NCBI GenBank assembly: GCA_041662665.1
Contig: JBAZSC010000001.1
Coordinates: 577,511-641,510 of the forward strand
DNA length: 64,000 nucleotides
Reading direction: 5' to 3'
DNA from: Patescibacteria group bacterium
GTDB taxonomy: Bacteria; Patescibacteriota; JABMPQ01; JAQVVF01
Each line of letters begins with the position of its first letter. Position 1 is the first letter of the stretch. Both the position numbers and the translations under genes were made by a program. Positions 15,057 to 63,415 of the stretch are shown here, piece by piece. The notes under the pieces were generated by a model. That model did no database searches, was not told the DNA's origin, and worked only from the letters and a program-made list of their open reading frames with translations.

Positions 15057-15491
15057 CTACTTTCTACTTAAACTTATATAATTCTTTACAACTATTATTG
15101 TTACCCCAATTAAAATAATTCCAAAAATTTCAATCATTACACTCAGCAGATTTATTTTTACACCAATCTTATTTACAAAAAATATCACTAACGGCACCAA
15201 AGCCAAAGATAAAGCAATAGATAAAATAATTCTTTCAACCCAATCAATACCGTCATTTTTTTCGTCAGAACTATTTATCAGCGTCGTATCAGCGTTAGTA
15301 TCAGCGTCAAATCCGCTTCTACGAAAAAAGACATAGCTCCACACAAAACCAGGAATAAATAAAACATAAATAATTCCAAATACCAATCTAAAAGAATTTG
15401 CAAAACCAAGCCAAATAGAAGATATTAAAGCAATGATTGACAAAATTGCTAGAAATATTAATATAAATTTAATGATTTGTTTTGGATCCAT
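15057..15491 (-). CDS. small 4-TM membrane protein, a stand-alone paralog of the N-terminal module of 22307..24409
   Basis: Shares LFIPGFVWSYVFFRRSGFDADTNADTT and VERIILSIALS...KIGVKINLLS with the large protein. The NADTNAD loop is encoded by an ATCAGCGT repeat element. Confidence 0.6.
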   Translation of the reverse strand: MDPKQIIKFILIFLAILSIIALISSIWLGFANSFRLVFGIIYVLFIPGFVWSYVFFRRSGFDADTNADTTLINSSDEKNDGIDWVERIILSIALSLALVPLVIFFVNKIGVKINLLSVMIEIFGIILIGVTIIVVKNYISLSRK

Positions 15492-24617: not shown

Positions 24618-24660
24618 TTTTGAATTTATCAGCGTTAAATCAGCGTTAGAAATCAGCGTC
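24618..24660 (+). repeat. 4 x ATCAGCGT element (periods 11-13-11)
   Basis: atcagcgttaa atcagcgttagaa atcagcgtcga atcagcgc. Confidence 0.85.
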
Positions 24661-25237
24661 GAATCAGCGCTTGCTTCAATCTTGCATAAAAATTCTGCAT
24701 TTCATTTTTACTATAATTTTTCTTTAAGTTTAAGTCAATTTCAGTCAGTGTTAACAAATTTTGATCTGTTACACCAGCTGCAGAAATCGCAAAAGTCAGC
24801 TTATTATTTTTAATATAATAATTACTCAACAAAAATTCTCTCAAATTAAAATTAGCACATGCTTTTTTCCATTGTGAATCGATATCTGTAACTTTTGTAT
24901 CAACAAATTCATATTTATCAAATGCTTTTTCAGCACCTAATCTTATTGAACTTGGCTGTCCACTATATTTTACGCATAAATTTGCATCATTAAAATTGGG
25001 TGGAATTCTAACTGAAAAATAAATTAATTCTGCCTTAACTTTTTGCGAATAATCACTGCCAACATGTTCAACGGGCAATAGTCTATACCAAGGATACGGA
25101 TTAGAAAAACGCAACGAATCATCAGGATTAAAATTATAAACAATTGTCATATTCTTATCAAACACAAAAAACATTGATAAAACATAGATTATCACTGCGA
25201 CAAACAGAATCCAAATTATTATCTTCAAAATTTTCAT
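24653..25237 (-). CDS. membrane-anchored hypothetical protein (N-terminal TM plus an extracytoplasmic domain)
   Basis: An ORF bracketed by two ATCAGCGT elements. The C-terminal ALIRR is encoded by the element. Confidence 0.5.
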   Translation of the reverse strand: MKILKIIIWILFVAVIIYVLSMFFVFDKNMTIVYNFNPDDSLRFSNPYPWYRLLPVEHVGSDYSQKVKAELIYFSVRIPPNFNDANLCVKYSGQPSSIRLGAEKAFDKYEFVDTKVTDIDSQWKKACANFNLREFLLSNYYIKNNKLTFAISAAGVTDQNLLTLTEIDLNLKKNYSKNEMQNFYARLKQALIRR

Positions 25238-25254: not shown

Positions 25255-25297
25255 GTCAGCGTCATATCTGCGTTAGAAATCAGCGTCGAATCAGCGA
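25255..25297 (+). repeat. 4 x ATCAGCGT element (periods 11-13-11)
   Basis: gtcagcgtcat atctgcgttagaa atcagcgtcga atcagcga; nearly identical to 24618..24660. Confidence 0.85.
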
Positions 25298-25299
25298 TT

Positions 25300-27446: not shown

Positions 27447-27489
27447 TTCAGCGCAATATCAGCGTTAGCAATCAGCGTCAAATCAGCTT
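27447..27489 (+). repeat. 4 x ATCAGCGT element in a divergent promoter region (periods 11-13-11, terminal atcagcttctaca)
   Basis: ttcagcgcaat atcagcgttagca atcagcgtcaa atcagcttctaca. Confidence 0.85.
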
Positions 27490-27512
27490 CTACAAAAGAT
27501 TATAACATAAAA

Positions 27513-29592: not shown

Positions 29593-29600
29593 TAATAAGA

Positions 29601-29639
29601 TTCTGCTTTTTCTGCGTTAGCTTCTGCGTTCTTCTGCGT
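29601..29639 (+). repeat. 4 x TTCTGCGT element (periods 9-12-10)
   Basis: ttctgcttt ttctgcgttagc ttctgcgttc ttctgcgtc. Confidence 0.85.
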
Positions 29640-30951: not shown

Positions 30952-30975
30952 CAAAAAATCGGACAATCAGTCCGA
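30952..30975 (-). terminator. intrinsic terminator for the minus-strand gene 31004..32575 (tcggac-aatca-gtccga, T-run on the minus strand)
   Basis: Read directly; it forms a convergent terminator pair. Confidence 0.55.
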
Positions 30976-31007
30976 CTTTATAAACTTTATAACTTTAAGA
31001 ACTTTAT
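30974..31007 (+). repeat. 4 x AACTTTAT element (periods 9-8-9)
   Basis: gactttat aa aactttat aactttaa g aactttat. Confidence 0.8.
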
Positions 31008-32575
31008 AGACTGTTAGTCATCACATTTTTAACAACATTAACTGGAATATTTACAAAATCCTTATAAATTTCACTTGCCGGCTTCCCATCCATGTATTCC
31101 GGTACTTGCAACCCCATATAATTCAAAACAGTTGGCGTAATATCCAAAATACTGATTGGTTTAATTTCCTTGCCAGCCAAGATATTTGGACCTAAAGACA
31201 TAAATATTCCATCTTGATCATGATATGAATTTGTATGCGATGTCGTTTCCACAAAAAGTTTATCATCAAATCTTGCAACAGCCAATCTTTTTTCACCATT
31301 AACTTTAAAAATAATGTCTGGCGCTTCAGCAACATAATTTCCATGATATTGCTCTTCACATGACATTACTTCTGTAAAAACTTTATCGCCATTTGGATCA
31401 GTAACCAACTTTAATTTTTCAATAATTTCTGATCTTAATTTTTTATATTCTTCTTTACTGACAGTTCCATTATTCTCTCGACCTATCAAATTAATATTTA
31501 CGCCCCAAGTTGATTTTGCGCCTAATTGAGCATAAGCAGTTGTATTTTTCCAATCAATCGTCTTTGTTGATTGCGGAATATTTTCTCTTATAATATTTTT
31601 AATTGATCTTGGAACAATATTCCTAAATTTATCAATAAACTTATTTTTAAATAATTTCTGTCTATCAAATTTAATTAAGTGAAAAAATCTGCGAAGTAGG
31701 GAAGTATTGCCTTGTTTTTCATGAACTTGTCTCCAGCCTTTTGCAACAACATCATTAATTTCTGATTTTTTGTATTGCATATAACCATTCTGATTCAACC
31801 AAGCCATGATATTAAATGTTTGATCATAATCATTAAAGCCATGATCAGACATAACAAATAATCCAGTTTCATTATCCATTAATTTCAAAATCTTGCCCAT
31901 CAAATCATCAAGAGTTTTATAAGTCCTAATAACCTTGTCTTCTTCATGCCAAAAATCATGCCCACAAATATCTGAACAACGAAACACAATCATAGAAAAA
32001 TCCCATTTTTCAGAAGTATAATATTTTTTCCAAATTTCATATCTTGCTTTATCAACTGAAACCATTGCATCAAATCTTTCTTCTCCGCCTTTATGTCGTA
32101 AATTTAATTCCATTGAATCAATAACATAATTTTGTTTTCGAAGCTCTTGTTCAAAAGACAATGGTTCAGCATATCTCTGAGTTGACAAAGATAATAGTCC
32201 GCCAACTAATTTGCCATTAATGCTTTCTGGAGGATAAGTCATTGGCACATTCCAAACCAAGCATCTCTTGCCATTTTCTGACAATATTTTCCATAATGAT
32301 TTAACTTTTACATCAGAAAAAGTATGAATTTTTCGATCTTCAATATTGAATTTATGCGTTGATAAAAAATGAAAGATTCCATGTTTGCCAGGATTCACGC
32401 CAGTATAAAAAGAAGGCCAAGCTGGCACAGTCAAAAAAGGAATTGTACTTTTCAAAATTCCATGACTTCCTTTTTCTAAAATATGTTTGAATGTTGGCAA
32501 TAAACCTTGATCACTATATTTTTTTATAGCTCTAAAAGTTCCGCCATCTAAACCCACGATTAACGCTTTTTTCAT
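31004..32575 (-). CDS. alkaline-phosphatase-superfamily type I phosphodiesterase/nucleotide pyrophosphatase-like enzyme
   Basis: The N-terminus is ALIVGLDGGTF...VPAWPSFYTG, and it carries SDHG. Confidence 0.7.
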   Translation of the reverse strand: MKKALIVGLDGGTFRAIKKYSDQGLLPTFKHILEKGSHGILKSTIPFLTVPAWPSFYTGVNPGKHGIFHFLSTHKFNIEDRKIHTFSDVKVKSLWKILSENGKRCLVWNVPMTYPPESINGKLVGGLLSLSTQRYAEPLSFEQELRKQNYVIDSMELNLRHKGGEERFDAMVSVDKARYEIWKKYYTSEKWDFSMIVFRCSDICGHDFWHEEDKVIRTYKTLDDLMGKILKLMDNETGLFVMSDHGFNDYDQTFNIMAWLNQNGYMQYKKSEINDVVAKGWRQVHEKQGNTSLLRRFFHLIKFDRQKLFKNKFIDKFRNIVPRSIKNIIRENIPQSTKTIDWKNTTAYAQLGAKSTWGVNINLIGRENNGTVSKEEYKKLRSEIIEKLKLVTDPNGDKVFTEVMSCEEQYHGNYVAEAPDIIFKVNGEKRLAVARFDDKLFVETTSHTNSYHDQDGIFMSLGPNILAGKEIKPISILDITPTVLNYMGLQVPEYMDGKPASEIYKDFVNIPVNVVKNVMTNSL

Positions 32576-32599: not shown

Positions 32600-32716
32600 T
32601 AATTTAGTCATAATATAATACGAATTTACGAATTATGCAAATGTTGCGAATATACAAATACGACGATTTGCATATTTGTATCATTTGCATTTATTTGTAT
32701 ATTCGTATTATATTTT
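32600..32716 (+). repeat. palindromic region built from ATTYGYAT-type 8-mers; the 3' 28-mer is identical to the pyrG leader
   Basis: atgcaaatgttgcgaatatacaaatacgacgatttgcatatttgtatcatttgcatttatttgtatattcgtattatattttca. Confidence 0.7.
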
Positions 32717-33818
32717 CAAACAAAGACAAATACTTTCCACAAATTCTATCCCAACTATATTGTTTAGAATTATATTCAAATGAATTTCTGGCAAACAATC
32801 TCGCATAATCTGGATCATTCAAAAATTTATTTATGTTCTTTATGAATGATTTCGAATTCAGAGATTCAACTAAAACACCATTTTTTTTATTTTTAATTGC
32901 ATCTTTGATGCCTTCAATATCAGAAGCCAAAACAGGTAAACCCCAATTTGAAGCTTCAATTGCCACAATTCCAAAACCTTCCAAATCATTCTTAATTTTT
33001 ATATTTGGCATTACAAAGACATCAGATGCATAACAAACTCTTTTTAATTCTATTTCAGAAAGTCTGCCTAATAAAAAAACTCTATTTTCCAATTTCTGTT
33101 TTGAAATAATACTTTTGATTCTTGAAGCATCATTTCCAGATCCAACGATAAGATAATCAATACTTTCATCTAAATTTGGCATTACATTTTTCACAAACCA
33201 AGCCACGCCTTTTCTCTTTATTAATCTTCCGACAGTTATCAAAACTTTTCTTTTTTTCATCTGCTTTTTACAATATTTAAACAGATATTTTTTATAACTT
33301 GATTTAACTTTTAAATAAGACAATCTAGATTTATGCAAAGAACTCAAAACATCATTTTTATAAAAATCAACGCCATTTGGAATAAACAAGCACTTTTCTT
33401 TTGGAACATTTCTTTTCACACATTCATCAATTGTTGAATTTGAAACACAAATAACTTTATCCAAATGTTTTAATTGTCTGACAATAACAAATTGATACAA
33501 AGGATTTGAATAAGTCACATCCAATCCATGAGCAGTTATCAAAACAGGTTTCTTTGTTAAAAATTTCAAAATAGAACCTGCCATTGCCATAAAAGAATCG
33601 CAGAAATAAATCAAATCGCAATCGCGCGACATAAAAAAACCTTTGATTATAGAATAGGGAATAAACCAAACTAAATGCCATTGCGATCTTTTTAAAGCAA
33701 TCAATCTTTTTTGACAATCAATATTCTCAATCAAACCCTTGCTATATTTTTCCATTCCACCAATTTGCGGTGGATATTTTCTAGTTATAAATAATACTTT
33801 CATAAATTTTAAAAGCAC
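32691..33818 (-). CDS. GT4 glycosyltransferase
   Basis: Carries EGFGIVAIEASNWGLPVLASDIEGIKD. The C-terminal NIIRIYK is encoded by the shared 28-mer. Confidence 0.8.
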   Translation of the reverse strand: MLLKFMKVLFITRKYPPQIGGMEKYSKGLIENIDCQKRLIALKRSQWHLVWFIPYSIIKGFFMSRDCDLIYFCDSFMAMAGSILKFLTKKPVLITAHGLDVTYSNPLYQFVIVRQLKHLDKVICVSNSTIDECVKRNVPKEKCLFIPNGVDFYKNDVLSSLHKSRLSYLKVKSSYKKYLFKYCKKQMKKRKVLITVGRLIKRKGVAWFVKNVMPNLDESIDYLIVGSGNDASRIKSIISKQKLENRVFLLGRLSEIELKRVCYASDVFVMPNIKIKNDLEGFGIVAIEASNWGLPVLASDIEGIKDAIKNKKNGVLVESLNSKSFIKNINKFLNDPDYARLFARNSFEYNSKQYSWDRICGKYLSLFENIIRIYK

Positions 33819-33823
33819 TTAAA

Positions 33824-33866
33824 ATCAGCATCGTATCAGCGTTCGAAATCAGCGTAGAATCTGCTT
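33824..33866 (+). repeat. 4 x ATCAGCGT element (periods 11-13-11)
   Basis: atcagcatcgt atcagcgttcgaa atcagcgtaga atctgcttctat. Confidence 0.85.
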
Positions 33867-34811
33867 CTATTTCCGAAATTCCATCCTTTTTATTTTATAC
33901 AATATTTCCTCCAATAATTTTCTATTCCATCCAATTGCAGATCCTAACAGCCCAATCACTAACACTTGAAAACCAATCATCATCAAAGCACCAGCCAAAA
34001 TCAAAGATTGAATATGGCCAGTTCCATTGCCAATAAGATAATAATATAAAAACCTAATAACAAATAATAAGCCAGCACCAAATAGAATAGAGCCCATTAT
34101 ACTCATTACTCGCAATGGTTTATAAATCGTAAAAGTTCTTGTTATAACCATCAAAGATTTTACAATGTGAGACGGAATGCTTTTGATCAATCTTGATTTT
34201 CTATTCACTTTCCTTGCACGAATTGGAACTTCAGCAATCAACATATCATGATCAAGAGCTTGAATTACTGATTCATGAGTATAAGTATGTTTTGATAAAA
34301 TATTTATTTTCATTGCCGCTTCTTTTGTATAAGCTCGAAATCCAGAAGAAACATCATATTTTCTTGGCAAATCAACAACTTTATATACAATATAATTTCC
34401 AAACATGTTTCCATATTTATTGAATTTCGGCATAAAATCCAAATCTCGCACACATCTATTTGCAATCACAATGTCAGCCTTATTTTTCAAAATTGGAGCA
34501 ATCAAATCAGGAATTCTTGTCTGATCATAGTGATTATCAGCATCAGTATTTACAATAATATCAGCCCCAAACCATAATGCAGCAGTTACCGCATCTTTGA
34601 AAGTAATTGCCAATCCTTTATTTTTTTTATGTGAAATAACATAATCAGCGCCAGCTTCTTTTGCGATGCTTGCTGTATTATCAATTGACCCATCATCCAA
34701 AACTAGCACTTCTACTTTTTTAATACCAAAAATCTGCCTAGGAATTTCTCTAATCACTTCAGCAATATTCGCTTCTTCGTTAAATGCCGGTATTGTAATA
34801 ATTAATTTCAT
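33867..34811 (-). CDS. GT2 polyprenyl-phosphate sugar synthase (Dpm1/GtrB-like) with a C-terminal TM anchor
   Basis: Carries ITIPAFNEEANI...VLVLDDGSIDNT and two C-terminal TM helices. Confidence 0.75.
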   Translation of the reverse strand: MKLIITIPAFNEEANIAEVIREIPRQIFGIKKVEVLVLDDGSIDNTASIAKEAGADYVISHKKNKGLAITFKDAVTAALWFGADIIVNTDADNHYDQTRIPDLIAPILKNKADIVIANRCVRDLDFMPKFNKYGNMFGNYIVYKVVDLPRKYDVSSGFRAYTKEAAMKINILSKHTYTHESVIQALDHDMLIAEVPIRARKVNRKSRLIKSIPSHIVKSLMVITRTFTIYKPLRVMSIMGSILFGAGLLFVIRFLYYYLIGNGTGHIQSLILAGALMMIGFQVLVIGLLGSAIGWNRKLLEEILYKIKRMEFRK

Positions 34812-34816
34812 AGTAG

Positions 34817-34850
34817 AACTTTATGGACTTTATAACTTTAAAAACTTTAT
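34817..34850 (+). repeat. 4 x AACTTTAT element 6 bp upstream of the Dpm1-like start codon
   Basis: aactttat g gactttat a aactttaa aactttat aaactaat. Confidence 0.8.
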
Positions 34851-34906
34851 AAACTAATTATCATATATCATCTTACATTTTACCCCATAATAAAAAAAAA
34901 TCAATC

Positions 34907-36327: not shown

Positions 36328-36351
36328 ACTCCTTAATCGGAGTTTTTTTTA
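36328..36351 (+). terminator. intrinsic terminator (actcc-ttaatc-ggagt plus T8)
   Basis: Read directly. Confidence 0.7.
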
Positions 36352-36352
36352 T

Positions 36353-36392
36353 TTCTGCGTTTTTCTGCGTTCACTTCTGCGTATTTCTGCGT
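36353..36392 (+). repeat. 4 x TTCTGCGT element (periods 10-12-10) overlapping the flippase 3' end
   Basis: ttctgcgt tt ttctgcgt tcac ttctgcgt at ttctgcgt; it encodes the flippase C-terminal NQRRNTQK. Confidence 0.85.
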
Positions 36393-37859: not shown

Positions 37860-37947
37860 TTCAGCTTTCGTATCAGCGTTAGAATCAGTGCGTAATCAAC
37901 TTCTACATATCAGCGTTCGAAATCAGCGCCGAATCAGCTTCTACATA
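37860..37947 (+). repeat. two consecutive ATCAGCGT-family elements (4 plus 3 units), each ending in atcaRcttctaca
   Basis: ttcagctttcgt atcagcgttaga atcagtgcgta atcaacttctaca t atcagcgttcgaa atcagcgccga atcagcttctaca. Confidence 0.85.
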
Positions 37948-42186: not shown

Positions 42187-43392
42187 ATGAAGTACAACGT
42201 TATTATGTTTAACATGTCAGAATTCCGAGAATGGAAATCTGGCATTGTTAATCGAAATTATCATATTTTACATAATCTATTAGAAAAGGATCAAATCAAC
42301 AAAATATTTGCTGTCGATTTTTTGCCTTACACAAAAAAACGCGCTTTAAAAATTTTAATGCGTTCAATATTAAAATCACCTGGTGGCAAAAGAATTCATT
42401 TTGACTTAACTTCAAGATTAACAAAAATTAGTGATAAGCTTTACGTTTATTCAACAATAGATTCAATATTTAGCGAACAAAAAGTTTACAAAAAAATAAA
42501 CAAACTGATTAACAAGTATGATCTTTTTAACAATTTAACAGTTAAGCAATCAAACAATTTATTAGTTTGGTCATATTTTCCAATGTTTTCTGGCTATTTT
42601 AACTATTTTAAAAATTCGAAAATTAATTCGCAAAAATTCGAAAAAGAATTCGAGTGCGTCAGCGTCTTTGATACAGTTGATAATTGGATGGAGCATCCAA
42701 ACTTTACTAATTATAAAGACAGAATCAAAAATAATTATGAAATAATTTCTAAAGAATCAGATTATATTTTTACAGTTTCCAAAGATTTGCTTAACATTTT
42801 TCCAAACGCCAAAAATAAAGAATGGATTCCAAATGGCGTTGATCTAGAACATTTTAATAAAAAATCTGACAAAACAATAATCCATGCTGGTCATCCAATT
42901 ATCGGCTATGTTGGTACAATTGAAAAAAGATTGGATTTTGAATTGATAAAATATTTAAGCCTAAAAAATCCAGAAAAATCAATTGTTTTAATTGGCCCAG
43001 TTTGGAAAAACGCTCAAGTTGATGAACTAAAATCACAAAACAATATTCATTTTCTGGGCAGAAAATCATATTCAGAACTTCCATATTATATTAATGAGTT
43101 TGATGTTTGTATCATTCCTCACAAAATTGACAAATTCACAAAATCAATGAATCCATTAAAACTTTATGAATATTTGGCTTGTGGCAAACCAATTGTTACA
43201 ACCAAAGTTTCTGGCATCGAAAAGTTCCAAGAATTAATTTACACAGCTAAAACAAAAGAAGAATTCAATGAAAAAATAAGTCAAGCTTTATCAGAAAATA
43301 GTAAAGAGAAAATCGAAAGCAGAAAAAATGCAGTTCAAGATGAAAATTGGAAAAACAGAGTTAATCAAATGTTAGAAACAATCTCAAAATAA
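42187..43392 (+). CDS. GT1/GT4-family glycosyltransferase carrying an in-frame ATTCGAAA element (NSKINSQKFEKEFE)
   Basis: Start trimmed to the ATG at 42187; the track's N-terminal extension reads through the repeat element. The C-terminal domain has YVGTIEKRLDFELI...YEYLACGKPIVTT. Confidence 0.7.
   Translation: MKYNVIMFNMSEFREWKSGIVNRNYHILHNLLEKDQINKIFAVDFLPYTKKRALKILMRSILKSPGGKRIHFDLTSRLTKISDKLYVYSTIDSIFSEQKVYKKINKLINKYDLFNNLTVKQSNNLLVWSYFPMFSGYFNYFKNSKINSQKFEKEFECVSVFDTVDNWMEHPNFTNYKDRIKNNYEIISKESDYIFTVSKDLLNIFPNAKNKEWIPNGVDLEHFNKKSDKTIIHAGHPIIGYVGTIEKRLDFELIKYLSLKNPEKSIVLIGPVWKNAQVDELKSQNNIHFLGRKSYSELPYYINEFDVCIIPHKIDKFTKSMNPLKLYEYLACGKPIVTTKVSGIEKFQELIYTAKTKEEFNEKISQALSENSKEKIESRKNAVQDENWKNRVNQMLETISK
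42613..42656 (+). repeat. 4 x ATTCGAAA-family element inserted in-frame within the GT coding sequence
   Basis: aattcgaaaatta attcgcaaaa attcgaaaaag aattcgagtg. Confidence 0.8.
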
Positions 43393-43513: not shown

Positions 43514-45475
43514 ATGAAACATTTCAAAAAATATTTATTCCCAATTCTTATAATCGCAATAGCGTTTCTTTTTTATTTTCCTTCTCTTAATGACAATTTT
43601 TTGTCAGACGATTATGATCATTTAATGTTTGCCAGATCGGTTGATAATGTAAAAATGATTCCGGGCATCTTCAAGATTCCAGGCGATATGTATCGACCAG
43701 TCATGAATTTATCAATTGTCATTGATTATTTAATTTATCATTACCATCCAACAGGCTTCCATTTTACAAGTTTATTATTATTTATTTTGTCTGCACTCTT
43801 AATTTATGCAATTGTCAAAAAGATTTCTAAAAATAGCTTAATGTCTTTTTTTGCTAGCTTAATTTTTATTGTCATTCCAAATCATTTCGAAACAACAATT
43901 TGGATCGCTGGCCGAACAGATTTGCTTGCTTGTTTTTTCTATTTATTAACAATTTATTTATTTATCCAATTTATTTTTAAAGAAAAATATTCTTGGCTCA
44001 TTTTATCTTATTTAGCTGCCATTCCCACATTTTTCAGTAAAGAAATTTCCATGACCTTGCCATTCACAATTGCCTTAATCTATTTAGTCTACTTAAGAAA
44101 AGAATCAAAGTTTAGCTTCAAAAAAATATTCTTGCTTTGGCTACCTTATATTGCACTTCTCATCATTTACTTAGTAATTCGTAAACAAATCGTCGGCAGT
44201 TGGATCGGAGGCTACAGATTATTTGGCGAAGTGTCTTCAACGTCTTTCTCTCCAAAAGCAATTTTATTGCCATTTTATTTTGTAAAATATCTATTTAATT
44301 TTGATTACCTTGCATCTTTTATTCCCAAATTTGCTACCAATTTTTCTGCTAATTTAGTTGCCATTTCAGGAATTGCAATTTTTTCAATTACAGCATTTTT
44401 ATTAAATTTAAAAAATCTCAAAAATCTAAAATTTTGGAAAAATATTGTCTTTTTAATTTTCATTACATATTTCGTCTCCATTCCAAATTTTTCAATTCTG
44501 CCTTCTTTGAAATTAAATTTAATGAATACTAGAGTCTTGTACATCGCCTCAATTCCAATTGCCATTTTAATCTCATATTTAATTTTTTCTACCCTCCCCA
44601 TGGGAGGGGTGGGCAAAAAGCTAAGAATAATTTTTGCATCTTTGATTTGCATTATCTTTAGCATCGGATTTTTCTTTAATTACATGCCTTGGCACAAGGC
44701 CCAAGCTAAATCAAAAATAATTCTAGATAGTATACAACAATTGCATCCAGAATTTTCCCAAATAGTTTATGCAACTTATGACAAAGAATTATTTTTCAAA
44801 AATTTGCCAGACAATATTTATGGCGCCTTTGTTTATCGCAATGGATTTCCAGAAGCTTTAAGAATTAAATTTAATAATAAAAAGATTTTCGTAAATCCAA
44901 AAGAAAAAATTGTTTGGGTTGTTAAAAATAATAAGGATGCCATTACATCTTTATGTAATTTCAAAAAAAATCCGCAGACAACTGGAATTCAAGTTTTTAA
45001 TTGGAATGACCTAGATGAAGTAAACAGATTTATTGAACAGCCAAGCATCGCCGAAAAACAAGAAAATAAAAAAATACTTAAACAACAATATTCTCAGCAA
45101 ATTCAAGAGTTTAATCAACAATTAAACAATTTAGCGCTTGAGCAATTTAACAATATAAATTCAAGTGGAAAAACAACAGCATTAAAAAGTCCTGAATTAA
45201 ATTTTCCTCCACAAATTATTGATGAATTAAGTTTTAAAATGACAGCGCAACAAAATTCTATCGCTGACTTTTTATGGCGTACAAAAAATTCAAAATTTAA
45301 CGACTTAAATAATAATATTTTACTGCCAATTAAAGCAGGGGATAATGAATACAAAATTGATTTAACAAAATGCCCAGCCTGGTTTACATCAACAACAAAT
45401 GATATCAACCAATTTGAATTAATTCCAACTGAAAAAAGACAGAAAATTAAAATAGATAATATAGAAATAAAATAA
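43514..45475 (+). CDS. GT-C family membrane glycosyltransferase (PMT/ArnT-like) carrying an in-frame REP-like insertion
   Basis: A polytopic protein with the first-loop motif FLSDDYDHLMFARS. The GC-rich palindrome at 44587..44613 encodes STLPMGGVGKK. Confidence 0.6.
   Translation: MKHFKKYLFPILIIAIAFLFYFPSLNDNFLSDDYDHLMFARSVDNVKMIPGIFKIPGDMYRPVMNLSIVIDYLIYHYHPTGFHFTSLLLFILSALLIYAIVKKISKNSLMSFFASLIFIVIPNHFETTIWIAGRTDLLACFFYLLTIYLFIQFIFKEKYSWLILSYLAAIPTFFSKEISMTLPFTIALIYLVYLRKESKFSFKKIFLLWLPYIALLIIYLVIRKQIVGSWIGGYRLFGEVSSTSFSPKAILLPFYFVKYLFNFDYLASFIPKFATNFSANLVAISGIAIFSITAFLLNLKNLKNLKFWKNIVFLIFITYFVSIPNFSILPSLKLNLMNTRVLYIASIPIAILISYLIFSTLPMGGVGKKLRIIFASLICIIFSIGFFFNYMPWHKAQAKSKIILDSIQQLHPEFSQIVYATYDKELFFKNLPDNIYGAFVYRNGFPEALRIKFNNKKIFVNPKEKIVWVVKNNKDAITSLCNFKKNPQTTGIQVFNWNDLDEVNRFIEQPSIAEKQENKKILKQQYSQQIQEFNQQLNNLALEQFNNINSSGKTTALKSPELNFPPQIIDELSFKMTAQQNSIADFLWRTKNSKFNDLNNNILLPIKAGDNEYKIDLTKCPAWFTSTTNDINQFELIPTEKRQKIKIDNIEIK
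44587..44613 (+). repeat. REP-like GC-rich palindrome (ccctccccatgggaggg), an in-frame copy
   Basis: ttctaccctccccatgggaggggtggg matches the hairpins flanking the RAYT gene. Confidence 0.75.
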
Positions 45476-45498: not shown

Positions 45499-45784
45499 AA
45501 AAGTTCCATTTTATGCCTTTCTTCAACGAATCAATTCGTTTGAATGCTATTAAAATAATTATTACTGCTTCGCCTAAACCAAGAAACAAAAGACCCTCAT
45601 CCCCCTCTTTTAAATAGAAACCACCCAGTATTAACATAAAAGAAAGAAAAATCCCAAATTTCCAAAATCGTATTGAATCAAGCCAACTCTTTTTCTTAGC
45701 AAAGAAAACATATGAAATAATAATTGTACAAGAAAACATTACGATACAAAACAAACACTTTAGTATTAGCATTATTGTTTCCAT
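45497..45784 (-). CDS. small membrane protein (95 aa, 2-3 TM)
   Basis: An ORF with a hydrophobic profile, divergent from the GT2 gene. Confidence 0.4.
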   Translation of the reverse strand: METIMLILKCLFCIVMFSCTIIISYVFFAKKKSWLDSIRFWKFGIFLSFMLILGGFYLKEGDEGLLFLGLGEAVIIILIAFKRIDSLKKGIKWNF

Positions 45785-45913
45785 CCCTTCCTCCTCCTCC
45801 AGTTTCTGCTTTCAACGACAACCAAATATAGCATAAATTAAAAATAATATCAAATAATATAACAATTTATATTTATTCTAACCAAAATTATTAATATTTA
45901 ATATTCAACATTC

Positions 45914-46828
45914 ATGCTTCTCTCAATCATCATAGTCAACTGGAACACTAAAGAATTATTACGCAAATGCATTCAATCAATCATGTCAAACGCGCCTAGT
46001 TTTGATTATGAAATAATTGTCATCGACAATGCCTCAACTGATGGTTCAGCTGATATGCTAAAATATGAGCTTTCCAAAGATCAATATTTAGATCGTTTTG
46101 ATTCTGTTACCAATGCTCATGTCATTATCAATGAAAAAAACTTAGGCTTTGCAAAAGCAAACAATCAAGGAATAAAAAGAGCAAAAGGGGATTATATTTT
46201 ATTATTAAATCCAGATACCGAAGTCCAGCATAATTGTCTTCAAAGAACAGTTAATTTTTTGAATGAATTCAAAGAAGTTGGAATTTTAGGATGCAAACTT
46301 TTAAATCCAGACAGAACACTTCAACATTCAGTCAGAAAATTTCCAACTCTCATGTCTCAAGTTCTAATTCTCTTAAAACTTCATAATTTATTTCCAACCT
46401 TAAAGTCCTTACAAAATTACTTTCTTCCAAACTTTGATTACAATAAAAGCCAAGAAGTTGACCAAGTCATGGGCGCATATTTTTTAATTAACAGAAAAGT
46501 AATAGACAAAATTGGCATGCTGGATGAAAAATATTGGATCTGGTTTGAAGAAGTTGATTATTGCAAAATGGCCAAAAATGCTGGTTTTCAAGTTTATTAT
46601 TTCAAAGATGCAGAAACAATCCATCAAAAAGCCCAAGCTTTTAATCAAGTTTTAGGAATAAAAAAACAAGTTTATTTAAATAATTCACTTTTGCATTATT
46701 TCAATAAATTCCATTCACTATTTAGCGTTCTTGTAATTTTATTTTTATATCCAATAAGTTTATTTTTAGCCTTGATTGTTGATTTTGTAAAATTGTTTAT
46801 TCCCGTAAAGAAAAAAGAAAACCTTTAG
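45914..46828 (+). CDS. GT2 glycosyltransferase with a C-terminal TM segment
   Basis: Carries LSIIIVNWNTKELLRKCIQSI...IVIDNASTDGS. Confidence 0.85.
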   Translation: MLLSIIIVNWNTKELLRKCIQSIMSNAPSFDYEIIVIDNASTDGSADMLKYELSKDQYLDRFDSVTNAHVIINEKNLGFAKANNQGIKRAKGDYILLLNPDTEVQHNCLQRTVNFLNEFKEVGILGCKLLNPDRTLQHSVRKFPTLMSQVLILLKLHNLFPTLKSLQNYFLPNFDYNKSQEVDQVMGAYFLINRKVIDKIGMLDEKYWIWFEEVDYCKMAKNAGFQVYYFKDAETIHQKAQAFNQVLGIKKQVYLNNSLLHYFNKFHSLFSVLVILFLYPISLFLALIVDFVKLFIPVKKKENL

Positions 46829-46862
46829 CTTCTACCCTCCCCATGGGAGGGGTTTGTGAAAC
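46829..46862 (+). repeat. REP-like GC-rich hairpin (left flank of RAYT)
   Basis: cttctaccctccccatgggaggggtttgtgaaac contains the 17-bp perfect palindrome ccctccccatgggaggg. Confidence 0.8.
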
Positions 46863-46881
46863 AAAAATAAAACAAAAATCA

Positions 46882-47496
46882 ATGCAACAACCCCTTCCAC
46901 AAAAACAAAAAATATTTTGGCAAGATAATTCTTTTTATTTTTTAACAACCTCAACATTTCTGCATTATCCATATTTTAAAGTGCCTGAACAAAAACAAAT
47001 TGTTTTAAATAAATTCAAGCAAATCAAAGAGATTTTAAAAGTTCCTTTTCAATCACACAGCATTGCAATCAACCATTTTCATATTATGTTTTATTTAAAA
47101 TCCGGAAAAACAATGGCTCAACTAAAAAATATGTTGCACAGTGGAATATCAAGAGAATACAAAAAATTTTATCAAATCAAATGCAAAAATTTCTGGCAAA
47201 CAACAAAAATATTTTTTATTAAGGATGAAAAAATGTACTGGCAAATTATTGGATACATCAATGGCAATCTACTAAAACATCGAGAAGTTAGCAGATTTGA
47301 AGACTTAAAAGAGAATCCTTTTTCAAGCTACAAATATTATGCAGAAAAATATGGCGATGAAACAATGCAAGGATTAATTCGAAATGTTATAAATCTTGAC
47401 GAAGACAATGAAGGAACGCTTGATCTTAAACAGCTTAAATCATTAAAAACAAAGAATTTACCTCAAACCACGCAACCCTTGGCATGGCCAAGGTAG
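46882..47496 (+). mobile_element. REP-associated tyrosine transposase (RAYT, IS200/IS605 TnpA-like Y1 HUH transposase)
   Basis: Has the HUH motif HFHIM followed by MAQLKNMLHSGIS, comparable to IS200 HxHhh...KGxSS. The N-terminal YFLTTST resembles the RAYT YHVTxR block. A candidate catalytic Tyr lies in MYWQIIGYINGN. GC-rich REP-like hairpins flank it on both sides. Start trimmed to the ATG at 46882. Confidence 0.6.
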
Positions 47497-47498
47497 AA

Positions 47499-47533
47499 GT
47501 TCTACCCTGCCCACGGCAGGGGTTCGTAAAACA
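47499..47533 (+). repeat. REP-like GC-rich hairpin (right flank of RAYT)
   Basis: gttctaccctgcccacggcaggggttcgtaaaac has a 7-bp stem ccctgcc/ggcaggg and the same flanks as the left copy. Confidence 0.8.
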
Positions 47534-47541
47534 AGCAAAAA

Positions 47542-49263
47542 TCATTCAATCATTATCTTCTTAAACTCAACTGAACCCTTTTTACTTCCTACAAAATCCA
47601 ATCTAATAATCTGCACCAAATCATTTTTTCTTAAATCAAAATCAAATTCATAAGCATGAAATTTTCCATCTTTATGAATTTTTTTTATAACAGAATTACT
47701 AGACAAAAAATCCTTATCGCCAAGATATCTAAATTCAACTTTCAACTTTTTAAATTCAGTATTCTTTAATTTTAATTTTAAACATTTAACAACATTAGTA
47801 TCCAATCTCAAATTCGGATCACTTCTCAAAAATGCATCTTTCTTATTTATTTTTAAAACATAATTCTTATTTTTATTTTTCCATTTAGAATTTTTAGCAA
47901 TCCATTTTTTAGATATTAAATTATATTTTTCATCATTCGAAATTAATGGTTTATGTTCATTTGTCCAATCAATATGCAAAAAAGCATTCTTATTTAAAAA
48001 CGCTAGAATAATCAAAATCAAAACTGGCATAATAAATTTTAACTTGCCAGCAAAAATAATATTTATTGCCAAAACAAACATTAACATTGCAGAAAATAAT
48101 GCTGGCAAAAGATATCGTCCTTGTGGCTGATAATTATCTAAGCTGTAATAAAAAGTTGTCAAAAAAGCAACAATAAAAAACAAAAATATTATCAAAACAA
48201 TATTAAATTTATCTTTTTGCTTTTTCCAAATTAAAAATAAAGAAACAGGCAATAATATTGCAACTAAAATTAAAAAATATAAAAAATAATCATAATATTT
48301 TGGATCAAAACCGATATTAGCTTGTCCAAAAACACCTAAAAAATTCTTAAATAATTCATTTAGCCAAGTTACAAAATTATTAAAATTCCATAGATCTCGA
48401 TGCTGTCCTTCCCAAAATTTATTGGCAAATTTCAATCCAAAGATGTCACCAACAAAAATCAGATTTCTAAACATCCAAGCAAAGCAAACAATCAAAGCAG
48501 GCGATAAAGTAAATTTCAAATAATCTTTCCAATTGTTTCTATTTTTCCAAAATATAATTATTAAAAATAACATTGCAAATGGATACAACGTCAATTTTGT
48601 CAAAAACGCCAAACCAGCAATCACTCCACAAACGAATAAATCAAGATTAAAAAATCGTAATTCGCCAATTCGCATATTCGTATCATTTGCATAAATTCGT
48701 ATATTTGTATTATGCTTAACAACAAAATACAGCATCATCACACCCAGCAAATTAGCTAAAACATCATTATTAAGCACCCCAGAAATAAACAAAAACATTG
48801 GCCAAAAACAAAAAGCCAATGTCAAACTATAATAAATTATTCTTTCTTTGTCCGCCGTAGTCCCGCAGGCTTGTCTGCCGTAGCCGAAGCGAAGGCAGGA
48901 CGAAGGCGGATTAAACAATAACTTAGCGGTAAGAAAAGCAAAAATGACGGTTAAAACGCCAAGCAAGCTTGAAAAAAATCTTAAAATTTTTATTTCGGAA
49001 TCAATTAATATTTTATTTTTTAAGACAAGATCAATAGGCGATAAAAAAAGATAATATAATGGCGGTTGATGCGCTTCCCAAAAAGAAGTTTTATTTGTTA
49101 GAGCAGGAAAGTGATGATTATTATTTAAAAATCTGATATATTCAAAATGAGAGAACTCATCTGGTGCAGAAAACTTTTCTGTCTTAAAATTATATATATT
49201 TGCAACAATCAAAAATATCCCACACATCAGAATTAAGAAAATAGCATCAACTTTATTTTTCAT
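47542..49263 (-). CDS. GT-C family membrane glycosyltransferase (GT39 PMT-like, DE motif) carrying two in-frame repeat insertions
   Basis: The first loop has FSAPDEFSHFEYIRFL, resembling the PMT DEVHFG motif. The GC-rich insert at 48851..48910 encodes PSSCLRFGYGRQACGTTADKE. The AT-rich ATTYGYAT insert at 48655..48720 encodes NIRIYANDTNMRIGE. Confidence 0.6.
   Translation of the reverse strand: MKNKVDAIFLILMCGIFLIVANIYNFKTEKFSAPDEFSHFEYIRFLNNNHHFPALTNKTSFWEAHQPPLYYLFLSPIDLVLKNKILIDSEIKILRFFSSLLGVLTVIFAFLTAKLLFNPPSSCLRFGYGRQACGTTADKERIIYYSLTLAFCFWPMFLFISGVLNNDVLANLLGVMMLYFVVKHNTNIRIYANDTNMRIGELRFFNLDLFVCGVIAGLAFLTKLTLYPFAMLFLIIIFWKNRNNWKDYLKFTLSPALIVCFAWMFRNLIFVGDIFGLKFANKFWEGQHRDLWNFNNFVTWLNELFKNFLGVFGQANIGFDPKYYDYFLYFLILVAILLPVSLFLIWKKQKDKFNIVLIIFLFFIVAFLTTFYYSLDNYQPQGRYLLPALFSAMLMFVLAINIIFAGKLKFIMPVLILIILAFLNKNAFLHIDWTNEHKPLISNDEKYNLISKKWIAKNSKWKNKNKNYVLKINKKDAFLRSDPNLRLDTNVVKCLKLKLKNTEFKKLKVEFRYLGDKDFLSSNSVIKKIHKDGKFHAYEFDFDLRKNDLVQIIRLDFVGSKKGSVEFKKIMIE
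48851..48910 (+). repeat. GC-rich imperfect inverted repeat inserted in-frame in the GT-C gene
   Basis: tccgccgtagtcccgcaggc...gcaggacgaaggcgga; about 65% GC in a roughly 30% GC context. Confidence 0.7.
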
Positions 49264-50501: not shown

Positions 50502-50514
50502 TTTTACGAAGCAT

Positions 50515-50585
50515 TTATTCGAAAAGGTATTCGCTTATATTCGCAAAAGTATTAGAGTGAGCCCCGAAAAAGTATTAGAGTAAGG
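50515..50585 (+). repeat. divergent ATTCGAAA-family element
   Basis: attcgaaaaggt attcgcttat attcgcaaaagtattagagtgagccccgaaaaagtattagagt. Confidence 0.6.
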
Positions 50586-53650: not shown

Positions 53651-54703
53651 ATGAAAGTCACAATTTCGTTATTAAATTATAATAAGAAAAAATATCTTCC
53701 ATATTGTCTAGATTCAGTTCTTCAGCAATCACATCAAGATCTAGAAATATTTTTTGTAGATAATGCATCATCAGACAGTTCTTTTGAATACCTAAAAAGT
53801 TATGCTGAGCATAAATACCCATTAGCAAAAATAAATTTTATCAGAAACCAAGAAAATTTAGGATATTCAAAAGCACATAATGAAGTTATTAAAAAAGCAA
53901 CAGGTGAATTTATTTTTTGCTTAAATCCAGACATTATTTTAAACAAAGATTATATTAAAAATTGCCTAGAAATTTTGATGCAAAATCCAAAAATGGGTGC
54001 AATTACAGGAAAACTTTTTAAATGGGATTTTGCTCAAAATACAAAAACTAATATCATTGATTCCTGCGGACATAGAATTTTAAAAACACATCGCATTATA
54101 GAATGGGGAAGCAATCAAAAAGATTCTCCAGAATTTGAAACTATAAAAAAAATATTCAGCGTCTCTGGTGCGGCTCCAATTTATCGCAAAGAAGCACTTG
54201 AAAGTATAAAATTCAAAATTCCCCAAAATTCGAAAAATAATTCGCAAACATTCGAAAATAAATTTGAGTATTTCGACGAGTCATTTTTTGCCTACAAAGA
54301 AGACATTGATCTATCATGGCGCTTATTACATGCGGGCTGGGAAATCTGGTTTGATCACAAATCACATGCCTGGCATGACCGCTGGGAGACAGGAACAGGA
54401 GAAACAGCTCTAAAAACAGCAGAGCAAAGAAACAAAAAATCTGACTTAATTAACAAATTATCATACCGTAATCATTTATTATTGTTATACAAAAATGAAT
54501 TTGCAAGTAATTTCTTAATTTATTTCCCATGGATCTTCTTTTATGAACTTGGCAAATTCTTTTACACCTTATTCAGAGAACCAAAAAATCTATCAGCTAT
54601 AATTGAATTATTCAAACTCTGCAAATTGACCAAAGCAAAAAGAAATGCTATAATAAAAAATAGCAAGATCAAGCCAAAAGATATCAGAAAATATATCTAC
54701 TAA
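53651..54703 (+). CDS. GT2 glycosyltransferase carrying an in-frame ATTCGAAA element (NSKNNSQTFENKFEYF)
   Basis: Carries VTISLLNYNKKKYLPYCLDSV...FFVDNASSDSS. The element is at 54227..54276. Confidence 0.8.
   Translation: MKVTISLLNYNKKKYLPYCLDSVLQQSHQDLEIFFVDNASSDSSFEYLKSYAEHKYPLAKINFIRNQENLGYSKAHNEVIKKATGEFIFCLNPDIILNKDYIKNCLEILMQNPKMGAITGKLFKWDFAQNTKTNIIDSCGHRILKTHRIIEWGSNQKDSPEFETIKKIFSVSGAAPIYRKEALESIKFKIPQNSKNNSQTFENKFEYFDESFFAYKEDIDLSWRLLHAGWEIWFDHKSHAWHDRWETGTGETALKTAEQRNKKSDLINKLSYRNHLLLLYKNEFASNFLIYFPWIFFYELGKFFYTLFREPKNLSAIIELFKLCKLTKAKRNAIIKNSKIKPKDIRKYIY
54227..54276 (+). repeat. 4 x ATTCGAAA-family element in-frame within the GT2 gene
   Basis: aattcgaaaaata attcgcaaac attcgaaaata aatttgagta. 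Confidence 0.8.
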
Positions 54704-60252: not shown

Positions 60253-60329
60253 AATAACAAAATTTTAAAATATTTATAGGCAAGAATAATTAAATCAAAT
60301 TTATTATTCTATAAATAAACATTACGACT

Positions 60330-60389
60330 ATTCAAATAATTTGCATATTCGCTAGATTTGCATTATTTGTATATTCGTATTATATTTTC
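60330..60389 (+). repeat. ATTYGYAT-family element forming the pyrG leader (shares a 28-mer with 32689..32716)
   Basis: atttgcatattcgctagatttgcattatttgtatattcgtattatattttc, followed by the ATG. Confidence 0.7.
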
Positions 60390-62018
60390 ATGCAACCAAA
60401 ATACATCTTTATCACTGGAGGCGTAATTTCATCTTTAGGAAAAGGCATCACGTCTGCTTCAATTGGCAAACTTTTGCAAGATCTTGGATTCAAGGTCGTA
60501 AACATTAAATGCGAAATGTACGTTAACATTGATGCAGGAACAATTCGACCAACAGAACATGGGGAAGTTTATGTTACAGAAGATGGAATGGAATGTGATC
60601 AAGATTTGGGAACTTACGAAAGATTTTTGAATCAAGACATTAAGAAAGAGTGTTTTTTAACAACTGGCCAAATCTATCAAGAAGTTATCAGAAGAGAAAG
60701 AAATCTTGAATATGATGGTGAAGATGTTGAAGTTGTACCGCATGTCCCAAAAGAAATTATTAGAAGAATTAAATTAGCTACAGAAAAAAGTAAAGCCGAT
60801 TTTGCAATCGTTGAATTTGGCGGCACAGTAGGCGAGTATCAACAAGTTCTTTTTCTAGAAGCTGACAGAATGATGAAACATGAACTAAAAAAGGATGTGC
60901 TAAACATTCATATTGCTTATCTTCCTATTCCTCCAAGCGTTGGTGAAATGAAATCAAAACCAGCTCAATATTCAGTTAGAACATTGTTCTCAGCTGGAAT
61001 TGTACCAGATATTTTTATTGGCCGTTCAACAACATATATGGATCAACATAGAATGGAAGTCCTTTCAAGAAATACTAACATTGCAATTGAAAACATTTTT
61101 TCTAATCCAGATGTTAAATCAATTTATGAAGTTCCATTGATTTTAGCAAAACAAAAAGTCGCAGAATGTGTTTTAGGATTTTTTGGTGTTAAACCTAGAA
61201 AAAAAGCAAGTTTAACAAACTGGAAAAAATTAGTTAAAACAATCAAAGAAGTAAAAAAAGAAATAAAAATTGGTATCGTCGGAAAATATTTTGCCTCTGG
61301 AGATTTCTCACAAGGCGATTCATATATATCTGTCATCGAAGCAATAAAACACGCTTGCTGGGCTAATAATGTCAATCCAATAATAAAATGGCTTGATTCA
61401 GAATCATACGAAAAAGATCCAAAAAAAGTAACAGAATTAAAAGAATGCGATGGCATCATTGTACCAGGCGGTTACGGAAAAAGGGGAGTCGAAGGTAAAA
61501 TAAATGCTATTAAATTTGTTCGCGAAAATAAAATTCCATATTTAGGATTATGCTATGGCTTGCAAATGGCTGTCATTGAATTTGCTAGAAATATTTGTAA
61601 AATTAAAGATGCCAATACTACAGAGAATGAACCAAATACAAAGAATCCAGTCATTGATGTCATGGAAGCACAAAAAAAACTTTTGGCTAAAAAACAATAT
61701 GGAGCTTCTAATCGTCTAGGATCATACGAGTGCAAACTCAAAAAAGATAGCAAAACATTTAAAGCTTATGGCAAAGAAACAATTTTCGAACGCCATCGAC
61801 ATCGCTATGAATTAAATAATAGCTACAAAGAAATTCTAGAAAAAAATGGCTTAAAAATAGTTGGCCACAATCCATATTTGAATCTAGCAGAAATAGTTGA
61901 GCTAGAAAATCATCCATGGTTTATCGGTACTCAATTCCATCCAGAATTTAAATCAAGACTAGAAAGTCCACATCCACTATTTGTCAGTTTTATCAAAGCT
62001 GCAATAGATAATAAATAA
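60390..62018 (+). CDS. pyrG: CTP synthase
   Basis: MQPKYIFITGGVISSLGKGITSASIG plus a glutamine amidotransferase C-terminus (GLCYGLQ, HPEF). Confidence 0.95.
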   Translation: MQPKYIFITGGVISSLGKGITSASIGKLLQDLGFKVVNIKCEMYVNIDAGTIRPTEHGEVYVTEDGMECDQDLGTYERFLNQDIKKECFLTTGQIYQEVIRRERNLEYDGEDVEVVPHVPKEIIRRIKLATEKSKADFAIVEFGGTVGEYQQVLFLEADRMMKHELKKDVLNIHIAYLPIPPSVGEMKSKPAQYSVRTLFSAGIVPDIFIGRSTTYMDQHRMEVLSRNTNIAIENIFSNPDVKSIYEVPLILAKQKVAECVLGFFGVKPRKKASLTNWKKLVKTIKEVKKEIKIGIVGKYFASGDFSQGDSYISVIEAIKHACWANNVNPIIKWLDSESYEKDPKKVTELKECDGIIVPGGYGKRGVEGKINAIKFVRENKIPYLGLCYGLQMAVIEFARNICKIKDANTTENEPNTKNPVIDVMEAQKKLLAKKQYGASNRLGSYECKLKKDSKTFKAYGKETIFERHRHRYELNNSYKEILEKNGLKIVGHNPYLNLAEIVELENHPWFIGTQFHPEFKSRLESPHPLFVSFIKAAIDNK

Positions 62019-62061
62019 CCAAAAATAAAATCGCCTCATCGGCGATTTTTAGTTTTAAAGT

Positions 62062-62100
62062 TTCTGCATTTTCTGCGTCAGCTTCTGCGTCATTCTGCGC
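62062..62100 (+). repeat. 4 x TTCTGCGT element (periods 9-12-10) between convergent pyrG and rpmA
   Basis: ttctgcatt ttctgcgtcagc ttctgcgtca ttctgcgc. Confidence 0.85.
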
Positions 62101-63303: not shown

Positions 63304-63337
63304 TACTTTATAACTTTAAAAACTTTATGAACTTTAC
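63304..63337 (+). repeat. 4 x AACTTTAT element
   Basis: tactttat aactttaa a aactttat g aactttac aaactaat. Confidence 0.8.
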
Positions 63338-63415
63338 AAACTAATCATGTTTATGCTATATTAAAAATGTTATTTTTAACTTTAAATTTTACTTTTAATT
63401 TTAGACTTTAGACTT

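Follow-up and report, generated by a model that had tools for sequence, protein, structure and literature searches.

A probable RAYT REPtron with tagged hairpins in a member of the Patescibacteria

Introduction

Is a transposase-like gene flanked by GC-rich hairpins in an AT-rich bacterial chromosome a mobile insertion sequence, or is it a resident gene with short repeats of its own? The question is raised by a stretch of 64,000 nucleotides from a Patescibacteria group bacterium (contig JBAZSC010000001.1 of assembly GCA_041662665.1), referred to here as the window, which has a GC content of about 29% throughout its 64 kb. A gene in it, at 46882..47496, had been described in a sequence-only reading as a RAYT-like transposase of the IS200 family lying between REP-like hairpins (REP, repetitive extragenic palindrome; RAYT, REP-associated tyrosine transposase). 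Work on REP-RAYT systems has dealt mainly with Proteobacteria, and our literature search found no paper linking RAYTs or REPs with the Patescibacteria or the candidate phyla radiation (CPR).

We consider it probable that the locus is a REPtron, that is, a vertically inherited chromosomal gene for a RAYT-class single-stranded DNA nuclease/strand-transferase together with its hairpins. Such a RAYT REPtron would be of a known type, apparently not yet described in Patescibacteria/CPR. The observations behind this reading are the predicted fold, the catalytic residues, the constraint on the gene, a family-wide association of gene and hairpins, covariation within the hairpins and one presence/absence difference between related genomes. 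From analogy with characterised systems we infer the binding of hairpin and tag, the cleavage, the strand used and the benefit to the host.

Results

The gene product and its relatives

46882..47496, + strand: RAYT-like Y1 HUH nuclease gene, 204 aa, identified from the open reading frame (ORF) list, the homologue alignment and the fold match

The HUH motif proposed from the sequence alone was borne out by an alignment of 56 sequences. It corresponds to HFH at residues 65-67, where H65 (47074-47076) is invariant and H67 (47080-47082) is at least 90% conserved. The catalytic tyrosine had been placed in the segment YWQIIGYINGN, which is correct for the tyrosine of GYINGN, the predicted catalytic Y125 (codon 47254-47256), invariant in the alignment; the tyrosine of 'MYWQ' is not the conserved one. 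The block G-Y-I-x-G-N-L-L-K-H is conserved alongside these residues, and the ORF ends in a TAG stop codon at 47494-47496. The 204-aa product is identical to the 'hypothetical protein' WC663_03165 of a Patescibacteria metagenome-assembled genome, encoded on a 645-kb contig.

Profile searches, which the sequence-only reading had proposed as a check, gave a match to the NCBIfam RAYT model NF047646 (REP_Tyr_transpos; E=2.8e-11, residues 12-141) and a match to Pfam Y1_Tnp that stayed below threshold. All 56 aligned relatives matched NF047646 and 47/56 matched Y1_Tnp, compared with only 8/56 for the NCBIfam IS200 model, which did not match the window protein. Pfam was not decisive as sole evidence, given the sub-threshold Y1_Tnp score and a spurious Tap-RNA_bind match at a similar E-value. 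The window protein is a homologue of the NF047646 family and not a curated equivalog.

An AlphaFold (AF2) model of the protein had a pLDDT of 90.8 and a pTM of 0.86. When it was compared with the PDB by Foldseek, the top match was 4er8_A, E. coli TnpA-REP bound to a REP hairpin (E=2.6e-7, 150 aligned columns, target-normalised TM 0.69, about 17% sequence identity), and the next 26 matches were all IS200/IS605 TnpA proteins (IS608, ISDra2, IS200 and Sulfolobus TnpA). Sequence comparison and predicted fold together support a place for the protein in the Y1 HUH superfamily, nearest to the RAYTs, and its clade is a distant relative of E. coli TnpA-REP. An exhaustive profile search showed the clade to be modest in size: it returned 37 clusters (50% identity level) at E<=1e-30, and 140 when the limit was relaxed to E<=1e-10. 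Some homologues have already been labelled 'transposase' or 'REP element-mobilizing transposase RayT' by NCBI/IMG, and therefore the protein family itself is not unknown.

Hairpin units in the window

46830..46855, + strand: upstream REP-like unit, with tag TTCTA (46830-46834), stem CCCTCCC (46835-46841), loop CAT (46842-46844) and stem GGGAGGG (46845-46851), then GTTT

47473..47498, - strand: downstream REP-like unit, inverted, which reads on the + strand as CAAC, stem CCTTGGC (47477-47483), loop ATG (47484-47486), stem GCCAAGG (47487-47493) and tag TAGAA (47494-47498)

47500..47532, + strand: second downstream unit, with TTCTA (47500-47504), stem CCCTGCC (47505-47511), loop CAC (47512-47514) and stem GGCAGGG (47515-47521), then GTTCGTAAAAC

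44587..44612, + strand: orphan REP-like unit, TTCTA CCCTCCC CAT GGGAGGG GTGG, inside the gene for a 653-aa PMT_2-like membrane protein (43514-45475)

As the sequence-only reading had reported, two copies of a 33-nt element, TTCTACCCTSCCCAYGGSAGGGGTTYGTRAAAC, flank the gene at 46830-46862 and 47500-47532, both on the + strand, where none is expected (100 shuffles). A relaxed search returned a third copy at 44589-44611 with one mismatch in the 23-nt core. Their GC contrast with the surrounding DNA is real: a scan for at least 72% GC per 18 nt found only nine stretches in the 64 kb, and three of these are the + strand hairpin copies. The fold predicted for each + strand copy as single-stranded DNA is a hairpin whose 7-bp stem (CCCTSCC/GGSAGGG) is perfect and whose loop has 3 nt; what had been called a perfect 17-bp palindrome is this 7+3+7 hairpin and not a palindrome in the strict sense. 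The two + strand copies that flank the gene differ at one stem pair, where C:G in one is compensated as G:C in the other.

A fourth unit, 47473-47498, was found by searching the window for every TTCTAC followed by a hairpin. It is inverted and built to the plan shared by all the units, namely TTCTA, C, five variable pairs, C and CAT, with G-GT after them; its inner stem differs from those of the other units and is fully compensated. This unit encodes the last six residues of the RAYT-like protein, PLAWPR, and its tag provides the TAG stop of the ORF. The bracket around the gene is an inverted pair with tags facing outward, TTCTA-hairpin (46830, +) at one end and hairpin-TAGAA (47498, -) at the other. 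Together with the unit at 47500-47532, the inverted unit forms a tail-to-tail doublet of two hairpin types, with tags inward and a 1-nt spacer, which sits between the convergent RAYT-like gene and a 573-aa gene ending at 47542. It is the only doublet in the window.

Other candidate elements were sought. A second hairpin flavour (GCTTTAGC / GCTAAAGC), searched for in the window, was not found. A unit at 52317 (TTCTA with CTGGCAAA/TTTGCAAG) was rejected as a chance AT-rich match. Rfam returned only chance-level, sub-threshold matches, such as CRISPR-DR15 at the 44582 unit (E=0.59).

The positions of the units raise the possibility that they serve simply to terminate transcription, or as stem-loops that stabilise mRNA at the ends of genes, and that the transposase-like gene nearby is incidental. 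The upstream unit starts 2 nt past the stop codon of the upstream GT2 gene and the doublet lies between convergent genes; for E. coli REPs themselves, roles in terminating transcription and stabilising mRNA have been hypothesised (PMC3733652). However, a terminator scan of 45700-47800 gave no terminator-like site, a T-run follows no unit, and one unit lies in frame within a coding sequence (CDS). Together with the association of the hairpins with the gene family, described below, these observations make this explanation highly improbable.

Association of the hairpins with the gene family

A metagenome scan returned 76 loci, whose flanks carry TTCTA-type tags with hairpins on the upstream side and hairpin-TAGAA on the downstream side in nearly every case. 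The 57 homologous loci with at least 120 nt on both sides of the gene, largely labelled Patescibacteria, were counted. An upstream (+) unit was present in 39/57, a downstream (-) unit in 43/57 and both in 33/57, against a background of 0.26 units per kb for both strands together; an extra same-strand downstream (+) unit was present in 22/57. The flanking direct pair proposed from the sequence alone exists, but the arrangement conserved across loci is the inverted pair, whose downstream member at 47473-47498 had been overlooked. Loci without units were mostly those of the most distant homologues, at about 31-34% identity. One locus was binned as 'uncultured Gammaproteobacteria' (L008, 5495-6151). 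We set this label aside, and did not use it as evidence for a wider host range, because groundwater contig L014 carries the same REPtron sequence and the bin label may be wrong.

Three main hairpin flavours occur among the loci, distinguished by their loops (CAT, TTTA and CTTG/CTCG), and variants of the tag include TTTTA, TTCCA, TTATA and ATCTA. Covariation was examined in 34 distinct units of the CAT flavour, a set restricted beforehand to those with no more than one stem mismatch. Six of the seven stem pairs showed changes on both sides; the covariation score was 0.505 versus 0.143 in shuffles and collapsed when the partners were slid. Compensated stems included CCCTCCC, CCCTGCC, CCTTGGC, CGCCGCC, CGCCGTC, CTCTGCC, CCCGTCC and others, and the tag was conserved while the stems of these units co-varied. 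These comparisons of sequence show an association of the hairpins with the RAYT-like gene family. The conserved tag beside co-varying stems, and the tracking of one gene family by tag and hairpin in 33-43/57 loci, speak against terminators or stabilising stem-loops.

The overlap of gene and hairpin at the 3' end was also seen beyond the window. Of 56 proteins, 19 terminate inside their own 3' hairpin, and PLAWPR*, PPSWTA* and PSAKAG* are examples of the resulting tails. From their sequence we read these tails as hairpin that is translated as far as the tag, whose TAG stops it; the 3' overlap is a family trait.

Synteny and constraint in a related genome

The genome GCA_964574655.1 carries a related locus (L002, on a 654-kb contig) whose RAYT-like protein is 86% identical to that of the window. 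The upstream neighbours are the same and so is a 395-aa gene downstream; only the immediately downstream gene differs, the 573-aa gene being absent altogether from L002. Three gene-associated units are present there as in the window, including the inverted bracket. The upstream unit is conserved and the inverted unit (47473-47498 in the window) is identical. Among the hairpins there are substitutions in stem and loop, the two units of the doublet are 3 nt apart in L002 and 1 nt apart in the window, and the flanking DNA has diverged. Between the two genomes the RAYT-like gene has a ratio of nonsynonymous to synonymous substitution rates (dN/dS) of 0.10 at a dS of 0.74, similar to the three neighbouring genes tested (dN/dS 0.08-0.12, dS 0.9-1.9). 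The synteny and the dN/dS of 0.10 therefore point to a resident, constrained gene and not to a hopping insertion sequence.

The two genomes also bear on the start of the gene. Homologues share the start at 46882 (MxQPLP), whereas an alternative ATG at 46843 sits in the loop of the upstream hairpin (loop CAT plus the first stem G). Gene callers take this loop ATG as the start, at 46843 in the window and at 10001 in L002, and produce calls of 217 and 214 aa (MGGV/MAGV) in place of 204 aa; the disagreement arises because there is an ATG in the hairpin loop. We prefer 46882 because the N-termini of the homologues support it.

A second RAYT-like gene in GCA_964574655.1 encodes the paralogue P0067 (locus L005), which is 54% identical. 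It has several hairpin units of its own (L005 9880-9945 and 10595-10705) of the flavour xxGGC-TTTA-GCCxx (GGCTTTAGCC-type), with junctions GGTAGAA/TTCTAC as at the window gene. The different flavour suggests that each paralogue has a specific set of hairpins.

These data can be set against the possibility that the gene is an autonomous insertion sequence of the IS200/IS605 type, in which the hairpins at 46830 and 47500 would be the left and right subterminal hairpins of a unit of about 700 bp that transposes. In keeping with this possibility are the Y1 HUH fold with its motifs, the pair of hairpin copies on one strand that flank the gene, and the Y1_Tnp matches of most relatives. But the gene stands between the same neighbours in a genome at a dS of about 0.7 and under purifying selection. 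It is present in one copy in the 64-kb window, and several near-identical copies at variable sites were not seen. The downstream partner is more often inverted (43/57 loci) than on the same strand (22/57), the best fold and model matches are RAYT and not IS200, and the window ORF list contains no tnpB adjacent to the gene. We therefore consider an insertion sequence very unlikely, and the RAYT interpretation of the sequence-only reading is supported.

Units away from the gene

The orphan unit at 44587 lies in frame and is translated as S-T-L-P-M-G-G-V-G. It is absent from the orthologue at L002, whose protein is 82% identical and which has 15 unrelated nt in place of 24, so that the window gene is 9 nt (3 codons) longer here. 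By this comparison the orphan unit is a lineage-specific difference between related genomes.

Doublets, which the sequence-only reading had proposed as a further check, were found at the 3' end of the window gene and also elsewhere. GCA_964574655.1 has a doublet with a 29-nt spacer (L013, 703-780) on a different contig from its RAYT-like gene, between HU-like and UvrD/PcrA-like ORFs identified from their translations. At another locus (L027, 100-4000) there are 17 tagged hairpins in the 4 kb around the homologue, mostly in tail-to-tail two-type doublets (e.g., 2702/2710) in which a stem of the type CGCCCT-CTTG-AGGGCG is separated by about 5 nt from one of the type CCCTGT-CTCG-ACAGGG, a dense local population of units unlike the window. 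Locus L048 has several units away from the gene. A scan for CTACCCTNCCCANGGNAGGGGT in 185,579 species-representative genomes returned only six stretches.

Another explanation is that of a co-opted nuclease whose action is now confined to the hairpins beside its gene (for example in regulation or a host DNA transaction), the hairpins being no longer propagated and the stray units being relics. Such co-option with relic repeats has been proposed for RAYT groups 1, 4 and 5, and RAYT groups with few associated repeats have been reported (Bertels et al., PMC5581495; bioRxiv 10.1101/2021.07.10.451892). The very low unit counts, the strong purifying selection and the housekeeping-like synteny at our locus would all suit it. 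Less easily accommodated are the unit in the PMT_2-like gene of the window, with none in the orthologue of the close relative, the doublet of the relative on a different contig from the gene, and the dense local clusters around other family members (L027). The orphan unit, the L013 doublet and the L027 clusters suggest at least occasional spread of units, and we regard a purely local role as unlikely, though less so than either of the two explanations above.

Other repeats near the locus

Several other kinds of short repeat were observed in the window. Arrays of 3-5 copies of ATCAGCG plus 3-4 variable bases, in a 10-12 nt phase and mostly at gene boundaries, occur at 15275-15322, 24195-24245, 24628-24670, 25256-25298, 27448-27493, 33825-33869 and 37860-37944. 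Three of them end in GCTTCTAC, an 8-mer that also starts the upstream REP unit at 46828 and that occurs 4 times in the window versus 0.69 expected. Other phased short arrays, each kind at three sites, have the unit TTCTGCG+n (29597-29638, 36340-36391 and 62058-62099), AACTTTAT+n (30975-31021, 34818-34864 and 63305-63351) or ATTCGAAAA/ATTCGC+n (42611-42655, 50514-50558 and 54225-54269).

Two further repeats touch the 573-aa gene downstream of the RAYT-like gene (ORF 47542-49263), which encodes a membrane protein. A GC-rich imperfect hairpin of about 57 nt lies in frame within it at 48849-48905 (- strand) and is translated as PPSSCLRFGYGRQACGTTADK. It was rejected as a related element: it has no TTCTA tag, there is no copy in the fetched loci, and its fold z-score is -1.7. 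Repeat units resembling ATTCGTAT/ATTTGCAT are found at 48645-48726, 32612-32724 and 60329-60396; the first of these copies is in frame in the 573-aa ORF, translated as NTNIRIYANDTNMRIGELR.

Discussion

A close characterised counterpart of the window locus is E. coli TnpA-REP (a RAYT, YafM; 4er8; PMC3479197, and Ton-Hoang 2012, as cited there), which has the same Y1 HUH fold with one catalytic tyrosine and is the best structural match. As in the E. coli REPtron, a chromosomal gene is bracketed by short hairpins with a conserved unpaired tag at the foot; as in the E. coli bacterial interspersed mosaic elements (y and z REPs), doublets combine two hairpin types in opposite orientation; and, as in E. 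coli TnpA-REP, the protein has a C-terminal extension beyond the IS200 core, a tail that is inhibitory in the E. coli protein. For E. coli TnpA-REP the substrate must have the hairpin with GTAG on the 5' side of its foot, and the cut is made at a CT dinucleotide (Messing 2012, PMC3479197). At our locus GTAG (the last stem G plus TAG) is found only 3' of the hairpin, on the complementary strand, and so the polarity of the tag is reversed with respect to E. coli. The stems differ too, being perfect 7-bp stems without the bulge of E. coli REPs; there are a handful of units instead of the hundreds in E. coli, and the 3' unit lies within the CDS and provides its stop.

Many of these features have precedents in other families. 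In the survey by Di Nocera et al. 2013 (PMC3733652), tagged REPs have stems of 6-13 bp and loops of 2-3 nt and form compensatory sub-families; head-head and tail-tail dimers, intragenic units, REPtrons and TIRtrons (TIR, terminal inverted repeat) are described, and REPs that flank a RAYT gene can extend into its 3' end ('3'ov'). The stem and loop sizes, compensatory sub-families, dimers, intragenic units and 3' overlap of those GTAG-tagged families are all seen here, whereas the polarity of the tag differs from the GTAG families, and the copy number is nearer to the cases called there 'moderately abundant TIR'. Patescibacteria/CPR were not encountered among its 8 phyla in the part consulted. 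Two-type doublets have been described for RAYT/REP systems (PMC3479197 and PMC3733652).

RAYTs have been found in 24% of species, single-copy and vertically inherited (Bertels, Gallie and Rainey 2017, PMC5581495; 10.1101/2021.07.10.451892). The window gene and its relatives resemble them in their conserved synteny, purifying selection and diverged paralogues each with its own repeat flavour (PMC5581495). An association with REPINs, however, has been reported only for RAYT groups 2 and 3 (10.1101/2021.07.10.451892), whereas the distant, Patescibacteria-centred clade described here has doublets. With IS200/IS605 TnpA proteins (IS608, ISDra2, IS200) the locus shares the catalytic fold and subterminal hairpins with a 5' guide-like sequence; unlike those elements it is present in one copy in the window and at a site shared with L002, its conserved bracket is inverted and not same-strand, and the protein has an extra C-terminal helical region of about 60 aa.

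Several points weigh against a REPtron. The NF047646 score of 43.5 bits is below the curated equivalog cut-off of 80 bits, and the Y1_Tnp score of 15.7 bits is below the threshold of 23. The sequence profile of the family does not retrieve 4er8 among PDB sequences and gives only weak IS200/IS608 matches (E>=0.045), which is why the fold comparison was needed. The tag is 5'-TTCTA, compared with 5'-GTAG in E. coli. The pre-selection of units for covariation inflates the percentage paired, although the variety of compensated stems does not appear to be an artefact of that filter. The presence/absence difference at the orphan unit is a replacement (24 nt for 15) and not a clean insertion. Finally, the four units in the 64-kb window, three of them at the gene, are far below the numbers of classical REPs, and GCA_964574655.1 (at least 0.9 Mb, with contigs of 654 and 251 kb) has four CTACCCTNCCCANGGNAGGGGT matches, of which two flank the gene and the other two are the L013 doublet; this count is a lower bound because the pattern misses other stem variants. 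The very low copy number means that the term REP holds for the architecture and not for abundance.

If the locus is a REPtron, its activity might be pictured as follows. The unit recognised would be a hairpin of 7 bp with a loop of 3 nt, preceded at its foot by the 5-nt tag 5'-TTCTA and followed by G-T. If it works as E. coli TnpA-REP and IS608 TnpA do, the protein would bind the folded hairpin in single-stranded DNA and read the tag at its foot as a guide-like sequence. The HUH histidines would hold a divalent metal ion, and Y125 would cut nearby to form a 5'-phosphotyrosine link, from which strands could be rejoined. Hairpins or doublets might thereby be copied or moved occasionally.

A broader idea, which we put forward tentatively and hold to be possible without being the likelier case, is that Patescibacteria/CPR hold an ancient RAYT-hairpin partnership of their own, apart from the gammaproteobacterial REPINs. 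It would have a TTCTA guide tag, two-type tail-to-tail doublets as the copied unit and a 3' hairpin within the nuclease CDS and its stop, and a few copies would persist in genomes of about 0.65-0.9 Mb, some of them tolerated in frame.

The variant features of the system, namely its tag, its coding overlap and its low copy number, are moderately interesting. The clade is compact and offers dozens of loci in which gene, tag and hairpin vary together, which makes it useful for working out rules of recognition. The units also account for unusual islands of high GC content, and for short insertions that keep the reading frame, in genes of CPR bacteria. The partnership is conserved, constrained and syntenic in ultra-small genomes, which argues that the nuclease is kept for a reason other than the spreading of many repeats. 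If the idea of an independent, ancient CPR system is true, these loci would be a natural system of minimal size in which to study what a host gains from its RAYT.

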